The notes: generated from the letters alone by a model not told the origin. A stretch of DNA of 64,000 nucleotides from Syntrophomonadaceae bacterium (GCA_012728655.1 JAAYEQ010000026.1:28392-92391), one strand, 5' to 3'; positions 1 to 16,047 are shown, counted from the stretch's first letter. Numbers and translations: made by a program.

Positions 1-221
1 GCTGCATCGGCGGAGGAGGCCAGCCCCTGACGCGGACCGACCGGGATCGAGCCCGCCGCATGCAGGCCATATACGATGAGGATCGGGGCCGGCAGCGCAG
101 GAAAGCACACGAGAATCAAGAGGTGAAAGCGCTGTACCAAGATTACCTGGGAAGCGTTATGAGCCACAAAGCGCATGAACTGCTGCACACCAGGTATACC
201 CTGAAGAGAAAGAATACCTAG
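1..221 (+). CDS. [FeFe]-hydrogenase catalytic subunit, C-terminal fragment (5' end outside window)
   Basis: Frame 3 reads CIGGGGQPLTRTDRDRARRMQAIYDEDRGRQRRKAHENQEVKALYQDYLGSVMSHKAHELLHTRYTLKRKNT*. It carries the end of H-cluster motif L3 (C-x-GGGQP) and the conserved HydA C-terminal tail. Stop TAG at 219-221. Confidence 0.8.
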   Translation, partial: CIGGGGQPLTRTDRDRARRMQAIYDEDRGRQRRKAHENQEVKALYQDYLGSVMSHKAHELLHTRYTLKRKNT

Positions 222-560: not shown

Positions 561-3260
561 ATGGGTGAAGATTTAATTCCCATTATTGGCATAAATGAAG
601 AGAACTGTACCAACTGTCATCAATGCATTGCTGTTTGTCCGGTCAAGTTTTGCAGTGACGGCAGCGGCGATGTTGTCAAGTTCAACAACAACCTGTGCAT
701 CGGGTGCGGTCGCTGCATCGAGGCCTGCATAAAGAGTCATGGGGGAGTTATCGAAAAGAGTGCCCGTTATGCTATCGATGACAGCGAGGAATTCGTTAAT
801 AGCCTGGACTCTCGGGAGATAGTGGCTCTGGTAGCACCGTCGGCTCACGGCAACTTCAACCTGGGCCGGCTTATTACTGCCTTGAAAAAGTTGGGGGTTA
901 AGGGAGTATACGATGTTTCGCTGGGAGCGGAGATTACTGTAGCCTGCTACCATCGGATCATAGAAAGCGGGGATTTCGAACCGCCGGTTATTGCGACTCC
1001 CTGTCCTTCGGTGGTTCAATTTATTGAACTCCATCACCCCCTCCTTTTAAGGTATCTGGCCCCGGTTGGCAGTCCGGTATACAATCTGGGTGTTTATGTG
1101 CGGTCACTGCATCCGGGTGCGGAACTGGCTTTCATATCCCCCTGCCTGGCCAAGAGACGGGAGTTCCAAGAGAGCAGGATGGTTGATTACAACGTGACCT
1201 ACCGGTCGCTGCAGAGGATCCTGCGGGAGAGGAATATCGATCTGGATTCACTGGAGGAGAGTGAATTTGACGGCGGTGTAAAAGCCGGAATCACCACCAA
1301 TTTCTCCAGTGCCGGCGGGCTGAAGGAATCGTTTCTCTTCCATTACCCGGAGATTCCGGCCAGTAAAATTGTGAAGGTCGACGGACCGTTTGTATTTAAC
1401 GGCTACCTGGACAACCTGGAGAAGGCGATTGTCGAGAAAAGTGAGCATCTTCCCCTGTTGGTGGACATCCTGAGCTGTGAGAAAGGATGTAACATGGGGG
1501 TAGGGTGCATTAATAAAACGGTGGAGCTGACGGATTATCTGACCGCTACTCGCGCCGAGAGAGCCATAAAGGACCGGGAGGCCCAGGAAAGGCTGAAGAA
1601 GTTCCTGGATGAGGTACTGGCTGCCCATAACTTTTCCTATCGCAAATACCGGGACCTGTCACGACGCAGGGAGATCAAGATTCCTACCGACGCCGAGTTG
1701 GAAAAGATATACCGTGACATGCACAAGGTTGAAGAAAAGGAATTCCGCAATTGTGCCGCCTGCGGGTACAACTCCTGCTATCAGATGGCGGTGGCCATAT
1801 TCAACGGACTGAATAAGGCGGCCAACTGCCACCTCTATCAGGAAAAGGAACTGCGGATCGAACAGGAAGCCCTGCAACGGATACACTCCAACCTGACCAA
1901 TGTTTTTGACACCATGTCGGACGGAGTCATCGTATTGGACAAGGCCGGCCGGGTTACCAACTTCAACCGAGCCGCCCTTGAGATCACGGGTTATTCGGGT
2001 AATGATCTGCTGGGTGCCAGTGTGGTTGATCTCTTTTCCGGGAAAGCGCCCGGCACCCTTAAACTGCTGGAAACAGGAGAAGCCTTTGCCGACCGTGAGA
2101 TCCTTCTGGATGGGAAACGCGGCAAGATCCATGCTACCGCCACCGGAAAACCCATCCTTGATGCGGAGAACCGGGTCATAGGGGCTACCATATTTCTGAT
2201 ACCCATTGCCCAGGTAACGCAGTTGGTCAACAAGTTTTCAGGTGCCCAGGCCAACTTTACATTTGCTTCGATAATCGGTGAAGACCCGCAGCTGAAAAAC
2301 GCAGTAAACCTGGCGATGATGGCGGCCACCAACTCTTCCACCGTTCTGCTGCAGGCGGAGAGCGGCACCGGCAAAGAGGTGTTTGCCCAGGCTATTCATA
2401 ACGCCAGTGCGCGCAGCAACGGGCCCTTTGTGGCCATCAACTGCGCGGCGATACCGAGGGACCTGGTGGGCAGCGAATTGTTCGGTTACGCCGAGGGCGC
2501 CTTCACCGGAGCCAAGCGCGGAGGACGACCGGGCAAGTTTGAACTGGCCAACAAAGGCACTCTTTTGCTGGATGAGATCGGAGACATGCCCCTGGAGCAG
2601 CAGGGGGCGTTACTGCGGGCCATACAGGAAAAGGCCGTGATGAGAGTGGGAGGAGACACCCCCATCAAAGTTGATGTAAGAATAATTGCCGCTACCAACC
2701 AGAACCTGCTTGCTCTGGTGGACCAGGGAAGATTCCGGGCCGATCTCTATTACCGGCTTAATGTGATCAAGATCAACATTCCTCCACTGCGAGAACGGCG
2801 GGGCGATATCAGGCTCTTTTTCAACCATTTCCTGACGGAAATGTCGCAGAGGTTGGGCCGCAGGATTTCCGGGGTCGAATCGGAGGTCTACAAGTACCTG
2901 GAGGAATATGACTGGCCGGGAAATGTCCGCGAATTGCAGAACGTGCTGGAAAGAATGATTCTGGTTTCCCCGAACGGTGTCTTGACGGTAGACTCCCTTC
3001 CGCGAGAGATTATCGAAAAAAGCAGGTCAGGTGCACCGGCGCGAGCGAGGTCCGGTTGGACGGCTGATGACCAGACCGTGTTCCCGGAACAGCCGCTGGA
3101 TCGAAAAACGCGGAAGATGCTGGCCGGCGAACAGGAGAAAAAACAGATAATCAGGGTCCTGAATGAGTGTGCCGGCAATGTCAGCAAAGCCTCGGCTATG
3201 CTGGGGATTTCTCGCAATACCATGTACAAGAAGATGAAAAAATACAATATCGTTAATTAG
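561..3260 (+). CDS. sigma54-dependent transcriptional activator with N-terminal 2x[4Fe-4S] ferredoxin and HydS-type sensory [FeFe]-hydrogenase-like domain, then PAS, AAA+ and Fis-type HTH
   Basis: 899-aa ORF with SD GGGGGGAGGG 8 nt upstream. Two ferredoxin motifs: [12 protein letters not shown] and [12 protein letters not shown]-cluster-like motifs: ATPCPS (Cys148), SPCLAKRRE (Cys195), [12 protein letters not shown] (Cys306/310/316). Accessory cluster motif Cx2Cx4Cx16C at C398/C401/C406/C423. PAS at about aa 440-550. Walker [14 protein letters not shown] loop at nt 2496-2513. C-terminal [28 protein letters not shown]. Confidence 0.9.
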
Positions 3261-3267
3261 CCTGATC

Positions 3268-3326
3268 TGTCACCCGATTGTCAACCCGGGTACGGTGGTT
3301 TACAAAAAGGTGACAAATGCTGACAC
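3268..3326 (+). promoter_or_regulatory. candidate upstream activator sequence (four TGTCA pentamers in inverted arrangement)
   Basis: TGTCA at 3268-3272 and 3279-3283. TGACA at 3311-3315 and 3321-3325. Pentamer pairs are spaced 10-11 bp (one helical turn). The block lies about 250-300 bp upstream of the sigma54 promoter at 3573. Confidence 0.4.
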
Positions 3327-3427
3327 GATTGAGCCGTGAAAGAAGCCGGGAGGGCCGGACTACGGCCACGGTGTTACCGGAGATAACAGGTGAAGTTTCC
3401 TGCAATTTCCAGTTATCCTTGGTGGTC

Positions 3428-3459
3428 CCGCAGCCTTTATGAGGCTGCGGTTTCTTTTT
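3428..3459 (+). terminator. intrinsic terminator after the regulator gene
   Basis: Stem CCGCAGCC / GGCTGCGG, 7-nt loop, followed by TTTCTTTTT. A second weaker hairpin CCGGC/GCCGG plus T7 lies at 3524-3547. Confidence 0.6.
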
Positions 3460-3572
3460 GCCCGGATTTGAGGGACGGTAACACCGCTGTCCGTCCGTCC
3501 GCCGGACACTGCGGTTTTTCTGTCCGGCTTTAAGGCCGGTTTTTTTCCGAACCCTGCTCGCTGACGCCAATG

Positions 3573-3588
3573 TGGCACGCAATTTGCA
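3573..3588 (+). promoter_or_regulatory. sigma54 (-24/-12) promoter
   Basis: TGGCACgcaatTTGCA matches the TGGCAC-N5-TTGCW consensus exactly. It lies about 75 nt upstream of the ATG at 3662. A sigma54 activator gene is immediately upstream. Confidence 0.85.
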
Positions 3589-3661
3589 AGTGATAATTGA
3601 CAAAAGACAAAGTCGACGCAGCAAGTCAGTCAAGCGAGCAAAATGTAAGGAGGGAGATCTT

Positions 3662-4231
3662 ATGACAACCACAGCAGCAACGAAGCAAAAGGTCATTACT
3701 CCGTTGGGCAGCGCCTATACCAGAGCGGTGGAGGATTTCGTAAAAGCGATCACTTGTCCTCGTTGTGAGTACGATGTTTATGCCGTCGGCATCGCTTTGG
3801 AGTACTTTGTTGGTTCGGTGTTCATGACGCTGGCTGAGATGGGCCGGGATGTTGCCAGGTCGGAGTATACGCATCTGGCCATGATGCAACTGGAAAGAAA
3901 AGAAAAAATAGTGGCGGTCAACAACAACAAGCTTAACCAGATGCTGCAGTATTTCTACGACAACGGAGGTCCGATTATCGAGCCGCCGGTGGATGAACAG
4001 AAGGCTGCCCGAATCGCACCGCGATTCAAGGCCATCATCAACGAATTCTGTGACCGCATGGATGCCCTGGTAACCAAGGCATCCGCCGGCAGGATCGGGG
4101 TACGCGAGATGGAGAAGGAGACCAATGCCGCCGTTCTCGAAGTTTACACGGCCATGAAGGCTCTGTATCGCGAGTATGAATTGCGGAACGCCTTTGATGA
4201 TTTGCTCAGCTTCAGGACCAATAAGGACTGA
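3662..4231 (+). CDS. hypothetical protein, N-terminal ComFB-like Cys motif (sigma54-dependent target)
   Basis: Start moved to ATG 3662, which has SD AAGGAGGGAG 5 nt upstream. The ORF-track start at 3572 overlaps the promoter. 189 aa. Motif ITCPRCEYDVYAVGIAL resembles the ComFB C-x2-C-x2-DV-x-A-x2-L signature. The rest is not recognised. Confidence 0.7.
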   Translation: MTTTAATKQKVITPLGSAYTRAVEDFVKAITCPRCEYDVYAVGIALEYFVGSVFMTLAEMGRDVARSEYTHLAMMQLERKEKIVAVNNNKLNQMLQYFYDNGGPIIEPPVDEQKAARIAPRFKAIINEFCDRMDALVTKASAGRIGVREMEKETNAAVLEVYTAMKALYREYELRNAFDDLLSFRTNKD

Positions 4232-4360
4232 GATTATGCGAAAGCTTTATCCGGCAGGCGATTGGTTTCCCGATGAACCCCCGGGACCAGGCTGTCTCCA
4301 GGTTTGAGGGCAGCCTGGTCCACAACTCCACCGCTGCAACGAAGCTTATCTCTCATTTTT

Positions 4361-4392
4361 CCTCCCTCTATGGCGGGAGGTTTTATTTGTTT
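4361..4392 (+). terminator. intrinsic terminator
   Basis: Stem CCTCCC / GGGAGG with 8-nt loop, followed by TTTTATTTGTTT. A longer hairpin GGACCAGGCTG/CAGCCTGGTCC at 4285-4321 precedes it. Confidence 0.6.
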
Positions 4393-4488
4393 ATGCAGGA
4401 ATTTGACATTGCAAGCGGAATATAAGATTTGTTATATAAAATTAAGTAACGTATTAATGAAAATTAAATTTTACGGGGAGGGCTAAAC

Positions 4489-5655
4489 TTGCACAGGTTT
4501 AAACAGGTGGCTTTATTGTTGAGCCTTTTGTTGTTGCTCGGATTGGCGGTCGGTTGCGGCGGTGGCAGCCAGACGACCGGCGGAAGTGATGAGGATGTTG
4601 TCAAGGTCGGCTTTCTGGGGGCCCTAACCGGAGATGTGGCCTGTTACGGTATTCCGGGCCTAAAGGGGCTTGAACTGGCGGTGGAGGAGATAAACGCCAA
4701 TGGCGGAATCCTCGGCAAGAAAGTGGTCATTGTCAAGGAAGACAACGCCGGTGATAAAACCGAAGCCGCATCCATAGTTAAGAAATTCATCAGCAAGGAC
4801 AAGGTTAACGCGATAATCGGGGATCCCTGCACCGGCATCACCATAGTTGCGGCCAGGATTGCCCAGGATCATGAGATGGTTCTCATTTCTCCCGGAGCTT
4901 GCGGCGAGGGAGCTATTGACGCAGGTGATTACTGTTTCCGCAACACCCTGTTGGACAAAATGGCCTGTCCGGCAGTAACCAAATACCTGATTGACAAGGG
5001 CTACAAGAATTTTGCCCTGGTTACCGCGATTAATGACGAGTACAGCGTAGGATTGTCCAACTATTTCCGTGCTGCCTTGAAGGAGTATGGCGGCAACATC
5101 GTGATCGAGGAGAGCATTCAGAGAGGTGACACCAATTTTGCCGCCCAGGTGACCAAGATCAAGCCCACCAACCCGGATATTATAATTTTCACCGGGTACT
5201 ACCAGGAAGCAGCGCTTTTCATGAAAGAGGTGCGCAAGCAGGGGATGGATCAGATTTTCGTCGCCGGGGACGGCTGCCTGGGTGAGGAATTGTACAAACT
5301 CGGCGGTGACGCGGTTGAAGGCGGTATCGTCTACTGCGGGTTCTCACCGGAGCAGAACAGGCCCGAGGTGAAGGAATTCCTGGATGCTTACGCCAAGAAA
5401 TATAACGGAGAATTGGCCGATATGTTCGCCGCCCAGTATTATGATGCGATGTATATCGTAGCCCAAGCCATGGAAAGGGCCGGCAGCACCGATCCCAAGG
5501 TCTACAAGGCTGAGATGGCCAACACCAAGGATTTCCCCGGCGTTTCAGGAATTACAACCTTTGGACCGGACCGCGAGCCGATCAAGAATCCCGTATTCCT
5601 GTTGCAGGTGAAGGACAACAGTTTCAAGCTTCTGGATACGGCAGAGGTTATCTAA
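4489..5655 (+). CDS. branched-chain amino acid ABC transporter substrate-binding lipoprotein (LivK/LivJ family)
   Basis: TTG start with SD GGGGAGGG. Signal peptide with lipobox LAVGC. Type I periplasmic-binding-fold sequence (VKVGFLGALTGD...). First gene of a livHMG-type operon. Confidence 0.85.
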   Translation: MHRFKQVALLLSLLLLLGLAVGCGGGSQTTGGSDEDVVKVGFLGALTGDVACYGIPGLKGLELAVEEINANGGILGKKVVIVKEDNAGDKTEAASIVKKFISKDKVNAIIGDPCTGITIVAARIAQDHEMVLISPGACGEGAIDAGDYCFRNTLLDKMACPAVTKYLIDKGYKNFALVTAINDEYSVGLSNYFRAALKEYGGNIVIEESIQRGDTNFAAQVTKIKPTNPDIIIFTGYYQEAALFMKEVRKQGMDQIFVAGDGCLGEELYKLGGDAVEGGIVYCGFSPEQNRPEVKEFLDAYAKKYNGELADMFAAQYYDAMYIVAQAMERAGSTDPKVYKAEMANTKDFPGVSGITTFGPDREPIKNPVFLLQVKDNSFKLLDTAEVI

Positions 5656-6732: not shown

Positions 6733-7635
6733 GTGGAAGCGTTTATCCTGCAGTATGTAGATATATATGTTCTGCAAATAATGGTTTTGATCGGCATCAA
6801 CATAATTATGGCCCTGGGTTTAAACCTGATCACCGGAGTGACCGGGCAATTGTCCATGGGCCATGCGGGATTTATGAGCATTGGTGCCTATACCTCGGCC
6901 ATCCTTTCTTTGCATTACGGCATGCCCTTCTGGTTCTGCCTGGCGGCGGCGGGGTTGATGGCCGCTTTGGCCGGAGTTTTCATTGGAATACCGACCCTGA
7001 GGCTGGAAGGAGACTACCTGGCCATGGTCACCATCGGTTTTGCCGAGATCGTGCGGGTGGTATTCCTTAATCTGGACATTGCCGGCCGCGGAATGGGGCT
7101 GTCCGGGATACCGGCCACCACCAACTTTACCCTGGTCTGGGGGCTGGTTATTGTCATTGTGCTTTTAAACGCCGGACTTTTGAAGTCGAGACCCGGGCGG
7201 GCGCTGTATTCGATACGCGAGGACGAGATCGCGGCCGAGGCTTCGGGAGTCAATACCACCCTCTACAAAGTGGTGGCCTTCGCCATTGGCACCTTCCTGG
7301 CCGGTATCGGCGGGTCGCTCTATGCCCATTACCTAACCTACATCAGTCCCCAGGACTTCGACTTTATGAGGTCGGTCGAGTATTTGAACATGGTGGTTTT
7401 GGGAGGAATGGGCAGCATCCCCGGAACCATTCTGGGAACGGTGATTCTGACCATCCTTCCCGAGGTTTTGCGTTTTGTACAGGATTACCGGCTGCTGTTC
7501 TACGGCGCCTTGCTGGTTACACTCATGATATTCCGGCCCAATGGACTGCTGGGCGATGTGCGCTGGATCGATGTTAAGCGGACCTGGGCGCGGATAAGAG
7601 GGCAGTCCCTGGCCTCATCCAGTTCTGACAGTTAG
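6733..7635 (+). CDS. livM: branched-chain amino acid ABC transporter permease LivM
   Basis: GTG start with SD GGAGG. LNLITGVTGQLSMGHAGFMSIGAY is typical of LivM. Confidence 0.85.
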   Translation: MEAFILQYVDIYVLQIMVLIGINIIMALGLNLITGVTGQLSMGHAGFMSIGAYTSAILSLHYGMPFWFCLAAAGLMAALAGVFIGIPTLRLEGDYLAMVTIGFAEIVRVVFLNLDIAGRGMGLSGIPATTNFTLVWGLVIVIVLLNAGLLKSRPGRALYSIREDEIAAEASGVNTTLYKVVAFAIGTFLAGIGGSLYAHYLTYISPQDFDFMRSVEYLNMVVLGGMGSIPGTILGTVILTILPEVLRFVQDYRLLFYGALLVTLMIFRPNGLLGDVRWIDVKRTWARIRGQSLASSSSDS

Positions 7636-15060: not shown

Positions 15061-16047
15061 TTATTGCTGAATCATATCTGGATCTCTGCTCCAGGGCTTA
15101 TCCATGACCACATGCTCAATGGACAGGGGTTTGCCTTCCACCGTGATCTGGACCTGGTCGATATTATCAAGTTCCGTCAGGGTGGCTACAATGGAGTGGA
15201 TGGTCATTGCTTCCCCGGCAGCTCCGCCCGCATGCTTGGAGTGCATTTCCGAAGAAAAGTCGATAAAAGCGGTGTCGCCCTTCACCGTGACTGAACGGAC
15301 AGCGGCCTCGGTCGGTATGGTACGGCGAAGCTCGCTGTTGCGCGGACCCTTGATTAGCTCGTTGACAATCATTTTGAGATACCCGGCAACACTGATATTA
15401 CTTGGGACCGATATGGTTCTGGTTTCCGGGACCACCTTGGTGGCGTCCTGATTGGCAAAATAGAGGGTAATATTCCTTTTCACTTCGGACGGACCGGGCT
15501 TGGCCGGAGCGGACGCTGACGAACGATTTTCTTCGGTCGAAGTTCCAGGCTGCATGGGGAAGGTTTTCATCCATCCCCGGGGCAAGCCACTCGGTCCCTT
15601 TAATTCTTCACCCTCTACCAGGATTTTGACCTCATCGATTTCGTCAAACTGAGTCAGGGTGTTGACAAAAGCGCCTATCCCCAGGATTTCGGCCATGGTG
15701 CCATCGAAACGAGCAAAGTCGTCACTGACATCGACGATCAGCTTGTCGTCCTGCTTGATGGTCCCGTAAACTTTGGTATTCGGCGAAATGTTGACCCGGT
15801 AATCGTCATCTTTGGGACCCTTGAGCAAAGCTTTCAGGACGGCGGTGTACTTGTCTTCCCCGGCTTTGATTGTAATCTGTCGCTCTTCGGTTACCAGTCT
15901 TTCGTTATCCTCGTCGGCGAAATAGAGCTTAACTGTCTCGACTGTTTGCTCGGGCCGCTGGGGAACATTTTCCTGTTCCTGGGCACACCCGGCGAGCATT
16001 GTAGCCAGCAAAACTGATGCCATTAACAGAGACAACCGTTTAACCAT
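15061..16047 (-). CDS. gerM: GerM-like sporulation/germination lipoprotein (two GerMN domains)
   Basis: Start moved to ATG 16047 (SD GGAAAGGAGTG). Signal peptide MVKRLSLLMASVLLATMLAGC with lipobox. Two repeated GerMN-like halves (LYFAD.../LYFANQ...). Confidence 0.8.
   Translation of the reverse strand: MVKRLSLLMASVLLATMLAGCAQEQENVPQRPEQTVETVKLYFADEDNERLVTEERQITIKAGEDKYTAVLKALLKGPKDDDYRVNISPNTKVYGTIKQDDKLIVDVSDDFARFDGTMAEILGIGAFVNTLTQFDEIDEVKILVEGEELKGPSGLPRGWMKTFPMQPGTSTEENRSSASAPAKPGPSEVKRNITLYFANQDATKVVPETRTISVPSNISVAGYLKMIVNELIKGPRNSELRRTIPTEAAVRSVTVKGDTAFIDFSSEMHSKHAGGAAGEAMTIHSIVATLTELDNIDQVQITVEGKPLSIEHVVMDKPWSRDPDMIQQ

Follow-up and report, generated by a model that had tools for sequence, protein, structure and literature searches.

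What a hydrogenase-type sensor switches on, and what the product then does, is the question raised by a 64,000-nucleotide stretch of Syntrophomonadaceae DNA (GCA_012728655.1 JAAYEQ010000026.1:28392-92391, the window in what follows), in which a small gene for a 189-aa protein lies behind a putative H2-sensing transcription activator. We know of no organism in which the output of a 'sensory' [FeFe] hydrogenase has been defined, and of no account of how obligate syntrophs perceive H2. At this locus sensor and sigma-54 activator form a single fusion protein, and the small gene is its most conserved target, preceded by a textbook promoter and by a putative upstream activator sequence (UAS). That the gene is real, belongs to a family of its own and forms a sigma-54 unit beside its presumed activator we state with high confidence; its linkage with the hydrogenase-type sensor is likewise genuine and conserved. 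The biochemical role of the family protein is what we infer below.

The constant unit across relatives consists of the regulator, the sigma-54 promoter and the family gene, while the genes further downstream vary (Table 1). In close-subfamily loci with enough upstream sequence, the family gene is directly 3' of an ortholog of the regulator, except in S. curvata, and these upstream orthologs (~896-920 aa) have Fer4, Fe_hyd_lg_C, FeS, PAS, Sigma54_activat and HTH_8 domains. The linkage is kept down to about 25-35% protein identity, so that the initial annotation, which had described the gene as a sigma-54 target beside a HydS-like activator, is borne out by co-occurrence across loci. When metagenomes were scanned with the HydS-like domain, 80 loci were obtained, 25 of them full HydS-PAS-AAA+ fusions and 23 evaluable downstream; the family gene is next to the regulator in 10 of these 23 and behind an exact sigma-54 motif in 8, in counts that are not independent since some metagenome loci duplicate fetched genome loci. 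In a neighbour-joining tree of the regulators, built without support values, association with the family gene is spread across the tree, and where the family gene has apparently been lost the downstream genes remain, as in L039, whose sister L019 carries it. From this distribution, the module seems to have had the small gene ancestrally, yet can do without it.

The promoter itself, TGGCACgcaatTTGCA, has the -24 GG and -12 GC elements at canonical spacing, and this string (TGGCACGCAATTTGCA) is the sole exact match in the window, in agreement with the earlier assignment of a sigma-54 promoter to the 189-aa gene. Transcription is expected to start near 3599. A sigma-54 element is found ahead of a family homolog in about 25 loci; TGGCA[CT]-N5-TTGC stands 50-140 bp 5' of the ORF (open reading frame) start in the window and in L004-L008, L010, L015-L020, L022-L025 and L028, and hardly occurs anywhere else in the roughly 240 kb of loci covered. 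A one-mismatch sigma-54-like sequence, TGGCATCAGTTTTGCT, at 16008-16022 on the minus strand was rejected as a chance match because it lies within a GerM-like (Germane) gene, in the part coding for the lipoprotein signal peptide.

Directly after the stop codon of the regulator is an inverted repeat with half-sites TGTCAC/TGTCAA and GTTTAC/GTGACA, and TGTNAC/GTNACA dyads occur right after the regulator stop codon in most related loci. We consider this repeat a candidate binding site of the activator. Clostridiales enhancer-binding proteins have TGT-N10-12-ACA upstream activator motifs at distances of 100-250 bp (PMC6615313), with which both the dyads and their distances here agree. The order of candidate UAS, terminator hairpin, A/T-rich tract and sigma-54 promoter recurs in related loci. 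In the window two terminator-like hairpins separate the candidate UAS from the promoter, so the activator would act across its own terminators.

The 189-aa ORF is a real gene and is under purifying selection, with a ratio of nonsynonymous to synonymous substitution (dN/dS) of 0.10-0.23 against seven orthologs. It has the strong Shine-Dalgarno sequence and the terminator of its own that the initial annotation had given it. The terminator hairpin after the family gene is kept in the closest, Syntrophothermus-like clade (the window, L015, L016, L007, L010 and L018) and a 3' hairpin is also present in L020 and L022; several loci of Syntrophomonas type (L019, L023, L024, L025) gave no comparable one. 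This distribution suggests a probably monocistronic transcript in this organism and, in some relatives, one that probably includes the genes that follow. A longer, 219-aa ORF from a GTG at 3572 runs over the sigma-54 promoter and was rejected for this overlap as an artefact of ORF listing. An Rfam scan of 3200-4600 returned sub-threshold chance matches only, with no known riboswitch or leader. We also observed an ATG TAA start-stop mini-ORF at 3644-3649, overlapping the Shine-Dalgarno region, and short leader ORFs of other lengths in some orthologous loci (L007, L010, L018), which are not conserved.

The protein had been called an orphan, a description that does not survive database searching: a word-index search found 11 homologs, and an exhaustive profile search found 60 homolog clusters at 50% identity, with lengths of about 170-225 aa. 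All taxon-labelled members come from Syntrophomonadaceae (Syntrophothermus, Syntrophomonas or Thermosyntropha) and every member is named only 'hypothetical protein'. The 189-aa protein, earlier reported to be unrecognisable in sequence, has no match in Pfam or NCBIfam, nor a family in PHROGs or PADLOC, and no description of it was found in the literature searched. The other family members are likewise without a Pfam or NCBIfam domain. The family is thus undescribed, unannotated and restricted to Syntrophomonadaceae, a group of fatty-acid-degrading syntrophs.

For conservation counts we aligned 54 members, 37 from the close subfamily and 17 distant. The best conserved stretch is a signature loop (Table 1), in which F98, Y99 and G103 show little or no variation across the 54 sequences. 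A second conserved element is the CPRC motif, C32-P33-R34-C35, before helix 2, which begins at residue 36 in the AlphaFold2 (AF2) model; of the 37 close members, 33 retain C32, all 37 retain P33 and 32 retain R34, and position 35 is Cys in 15 and Ser in 13. The model is a compact, all-alpha six-helix bundle (predicted local distance difference test, pLDDT, 92.8; predicted template-modelling score, pTM, 0.87). Comparison of two AF2 models with the PDB using Foldseek gave nothing significant (best E 0.38), searching the PDB by sequence gave only a marginal match to TM1526, and the family alignment contains no conserved enzyme, metal or cofactor motif. The protein is probably a soluble, cofactor-less six-helix bundle, judging from the model, and looks non-enzymatic. 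Two other possibilities were considered and rejected: a membrane protein, because helix 2, hydrophobic as it is (1.66 in a Kyte-Doolittle 19-residue window), is part of the confident compact bundle; and a phasin or polyhydroxyalkanoate-granule protein, because there is no match to the Phasin family and a compact bundle is not expected of a phasin.

A more specific proposal had been that a ComFB-like Cys motif makes the protein a candidate for cyclic-dinucleotide binding. The string in question, ITCPRCEYDVYAVGIAL, is indeed present at residues 30-46, and B. subtilis ComFB shares C-x2-C-x2-D-V-x-A and, like other ComFB proteins (PF10719; 4WAI, 8HJA), is helical; the likeness is nevertheless no better than chance. 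Using the B. subtilis ComFB sequence (4WAI) obtained from the PDB search, hhalign of the family alignment returned a probability of 1.5%, its best alignment spanning 22 columns that include the shared string, and BLASTP gave E = 4 in an alignment elsewhere that left the motif unaligned. Within the motif only C32-P33-R34, [DE]38, V39, Y40 and G43 are conserved in the close subfamily, the second Cys of the CxxC being the poorly kept position 35. Conversely, the ALNxLPPxY core common to 4WAI and 8HJA is absent, the family having no LPPxY-like motif, and the Cys motif is missing from the aligned part of 8HJA, a ComFB that binds c-di-GMP. The Pfam search with the query found no ComFB at E <= 1, and for the 54 members ComFB is missing from the listed matches at that threshold, which cover the 25 most-matched of 70 Pfam families. 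No ComFB entry was among the Foldseek matches listed for the two AF2 models, and the protein differs in size and architecture, being twice as large with six long helices in 189 aa. The ComFB likeness is therefore a chance motif match, and since similarity fails at both the sequence and the fold level, the cyclic-dinucleotide inference loses its basis; we give next to no credence to a ComFB-type receptor. A misleading lead for annotation is thereby removed.

The window's protein is the B-type member of a pair. An A-type paralog, about 30-35% identical to it, is located immediately 5' of hydC in loci of the window's type, which read A-type gene, hydC, hydB, hydA, hydS-sigma54 regulator, promoter, B-type gene, terminator and liv genes. 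As the window begins inside hydA, its A-type copy falls outside; our reading of the first positions as hydA, and of the window as opening inside a hydCBA operon, rests on the tail of a truncated ORF, and a 574-aa Fe_hyd_lg_C/Fe_hyd_SSU gene precedes the regulator in the syntenic L005, L006 and L007. In L012 two tandem paralogs stand ahead of hydC, each with its own sigma-54 promoter (that of the A-type at 1373-1387). With an A-type paralog heading hydCBA and these tandem promoters, the regulator probably also induces the hydrogenase operon. This bears on the claim that the locus represents a regulatory cascade and not operon induction. The product does look non-enzymatic, but the formulation is too strong, as in L024 and L023 the promoter and the family gene lead on into hydCBA and hydE/G, and the A-type paralog heading hydCBA in the window's own locus type weakens it further.

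Control by H2 or redox state may extend beyond the sigma-54 units. In S. curvata the family gene, which lacks a sigma-54 promoter, faces a cluster of beta-oxidation genes; three Rex-like boxes lie 95-211 bp upstream of the family gene (L001 7790-7906), where 0.46 would be expected by chance. The boxes were scored as TGTGAA-N4-TTCACA, each with at most one mismatch, which we take to be the Rex consensus. Given these boxes, family members tend to be under H2- or redox-responsive control.

The most likely role of the 189-aa protein, which we put forward tentatively and by analogy, is that of a non-enzymatic feedback modulator of its own activator. The activator would bind the dyad-symmetric candidate site and contact sigma54-RNA polymerase at the promoter over about 250 bp that contain its terminators; on a signal from the hydrogenase-like sensor domain, a transcript of about 790 nt would be made, ending at 4361-4389. 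The 189-aa protein would then work through binding another protein and feed back on its activator, following the pattern of the pairs PspA-PspF, HycA-FhlA and FleN-FleQ, and the near-invariant Cys32 (CPRC/CPRS, located at the helix 2 N-cap) may gate the interaction. It is an established design for a sigma-54 activator to have an antagonist whose own gene is promoter-proximal and sigma-54-dependent (PspA, HycA, FleN, HrpV). Two features lead us to favour a protein-binding modulator: the absence of any conserved sign of catalysis or of a cofactor, and the constancy of the regulator-promoter-gene unit when the downstream genes vary. The spread of the association over the regulator tree, with losses that leave the downstream genes in place, also fits a modulatory partner and not a core catalytic part.

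Several observations weigh against such a modulator. Among the 23 evaluable HydS-sigma54 regulators, 13 lack the family gene downstream, so that it is not an obligatory partner; the gene has the anti-activator-like trait of standing under a sigma-54 promoter and being linked to the activator, yet only the remaining regulators carry it. The protein shows no homology to PspA, HycA or a known anti-activator in Pfam, NCBIfam, PHROG or PADLOC. Members of subfamily ii (P0047, P0050 and P0057) have neither a nearby HydS regulator nor a sigma-54 promoter; P0047 and P0057 sit 5' of minDEC and P0050 does not. Finally, the position of the A-type paralog at the head of hydCBA is at least equally compatible with a role linked to the hydrogenase.

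This last point is the starting point for a hydrogenase accessory factor, which would assist, stabilise or tune the NADH-dependent [FeFe] hydrogenase HydABC or the hydrogenase domain of the sensor and be co-induced with them. The placement directly 5' of hydC in six loci (Table 1), the tandem paralogs of L012 with their sigma-54 promoters, the order regulator, family gene, hydCBA and hydE/G in L024, and the run from family gene through a phosphoesterase to HydE and HydG in L023 and L027 all speak for it. Many regulator-family pairs, however, precede non-hydrogenase genes, distant paralogs adjoin minDEC or beta-oxidation genes, no metal or cofactor ligands are conserved, and S. wolfei Hyd1ABC forms an active alpha-beta-gamma trimer in E. 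coli when co-expressed with only the maturase genes (PMC5626996). On balance, we consider an accessory role doubtful. We extend similarly limited credence to a new class of protein that would combine elements of both proposals, in which an H2-sensor-induced helix bundle with a reactive N-cap Cys binds back to the sensor-activator or to the NADH hydrogenase and so sets, in obligate syntrophs, the H2 threshold or the adaptation of the response.

The same Cys could instead sense or transmit redox state to a different target, making the protein a thiol redox or 'H2-stress' effector. CPRC and CPRS resemble the CPYC and CPHC motifs found at helix N-caps, the motif here abuts the start of helix 2, C32 and P33 are well kept with a dithiol/monothiol-like alternation of Cys and Ser at position 35, and the S. 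curvata paralog outside sigma-54 control has its Rex-like boxes. This effector role is nonetheless unlikely, as the all-alpha fold is not thioredoxin-like, a full CxxC is found in a minority of the close members, C32 is present in only 5/17 distant ones and no partner or target is indicated. A degenerate ferritin- or rubrerythrin-like four-helix bundle with a metal or oxidative-stress role is suggested by a weak match of the family profile to TM1526 (1vjx; E = 0.0055), in which the hairpin of helices 2-3 resembles the repeated hairpin of that protein, by matches of two members to Pfam Rubrerythrin (E about 0.006), and by the Foldseek probabilities of the first model (0.80 for 1vjx, 0.75 for 3q4n). 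Per-domain E-values, though, are 4.4 and 12, the better model lowers the best probability to 0.35 or less so that the fold match is not reproduced, and the E/ExxH positions of di-iron ligands vary (E47 is Gln in 24/37 close members), the family having no conserved metal ligands; we regard this origin as very unlikely.

Table 1. Features of the window and of related loci. Positions without a locus label refer to the window; L numbers designate loci.
Feature	Position or locus	Strand	Remark
hydA 3' end, alpha subunit of NADH-type [FeFe] hydrogenase (reading)	1-221	+	ORF 60-221, tail ...SHKAHELLHTRY
HydS-like-PAS-sigma54 AAA+-HTH_8 bacterial enhancer-binding protein	561-3260	+	899 aa; presumed activator
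Candidate UAS	3265-3318	.	inverted repeat, two 22-nt arms, 77% complementary
Terminator-like hairpin	3428-3450	+	10-bp stem and T run; probably ends regulator transcript
Second terminator-like hairpin	3524-3539	+	5' of promoter; from hairpin scan
Sigma-54 promoter, TGGCAC-N5-TTGCA	3573-3588	+	GG 3574-3575, GC 3586-3587
Shine-Dalgarno AAGGAGGG	3647-3654	+	8 nt from GGAGG core to ATG
189-aa ORF (B-type family gene)	3662-4231	+	ATG 3662, stop 4229-4231; 21.4 kDa, pI 6.0
C32-P33-R34-C35 (CPRC)	3755-3766	+	directly before helix 2
Family signature Y-F-Y-x-N-G-G-P-x-I-E-x-P-V-x-E	3950-3997	+	residues 97-112; loop between helices 3 and 4
Terminator-like hairpin CCTCCC...GGGAGG with T run	4361-4389	+	hairpin 4361-4380; 3' of 189-aa gene
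A-type paralog	L004 3-356; L015 2-337; L018 1-213; L033 2-466; L079 2-547; L012 1448-1987		
Family gene, liv-type ABC transporter	window, L004-L009, L016, L018		
Regulator, family gene, hydCBA, hydE, hydG	L024		
Family gene, metallophosphoesterase, HydE, HydG	L023, L027		
Family gene, small membrane protein, citrate synthase	L019		
Family gene, aminotransferase	L020		
Family gene, acyl-CoA ligase	L021		

The regulator consists of two Fer4 domains, Fe_hyd_lg_C, a C-terminal FeS cluster domain, PAS, Sigma54_activat and HTH_8, with Pfam matches to Sigma54_activat (7e-67), Fe_hyd_lg_C (1e-30), HTH_8 (1e-16) and PAS. The GAFTGA motif by which the AAA+ domain interacts with sigma-54 is visible in its translation. 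By eye, the L1 motif of its hydrogenase-like domain reads ATPCP; the catalytic form is TSCCP, and the proton-relay Cys appears to be replaced. L2 (SPCLAKRRE), L3 (SCEKGC) and the C-terminal CAACGYNSC...NCH cluster are invariant in six aligned regulators. Fer4, Fe_hyd_lg_C and FeS regulatory domains have been catalogued among the enhancer-binding proteins of Clostridiales (Nie et al. 2019, PMC6615313).

Related sensors and regulators with other outputs were also observed. A group of ~700-aa proteins (L049-L061, L065, L069, L072, L076, L077) has a HydS-like domain 57-64% identical to that of the regulator; searches matched neither the PAS nor the sigma-54 AAA+ region of the window regulator in them, and they presumably carry a different output domain. 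In S. wolfei, Swol_1040 has been described as a hydrogenase-domain histidine kinase (PMC4324140). Most of the 13 regulators lacking the family gene have sigma-54 promoters ahead of other genes. In loci of this kind (L034, L035, L036, L039, L041, L043, L062-L070, L078) the other targets include a YgaP-like small membrane protein with citrate synthase or nuoA/C, a GreA-like protein with glutamate dehydrogenase, and a ChlI-like AAA protein encoded by a divergent gene. Among the distant paralogs, P0047, P0048 and P0057 share the upstream element CTTGTGAATGATAGTACAATCACATTAGAAGG, which P0050 lacks; this ~32-nt sequence is identical on different contigs (L029 ~260-290, L030 ~6915-6945, L031 ~6900-6930) and may be an operator or promoter.

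The sensor half of this system has known relatives. The window regulator shares with the sensory [FeFe] hydrogenases of HydS groups C/D (TmHydS, TamHydS) the layout of N-terminal Fer4, H-domain, C-terminal 4-Cys cluster and PAS, and the papers on HydS and on Clostridiales enhancer-binding proteins describe sensors rather than what they control. The small protein is a candidate partner for asking what HydS-type sensors do, and the region 3265-3600 offers a simple read-out of sensor output. On the output side, the comparison is with PspF-PspA, FhlA-HycA and FleQ-FleN. The family protein resembles none of PspA, HycA and FleN in sequence or fold, and the window activator differs from PspF, FhlA and FleQ in that its sensor is an [FeFe]-hydrogenase-like domain and in that about half of the related activators are without the small gene. 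What the systems have in common is their design: HycA heads a hydrogenase operon, and the family gene likewise encodes a small, apparently non-enzymatic protein and is promoter-proximal in a sigma-54 unit by its activator, in the shared layout of a UAS (here a candidate), a -24/-12 promoter and the small gene first.
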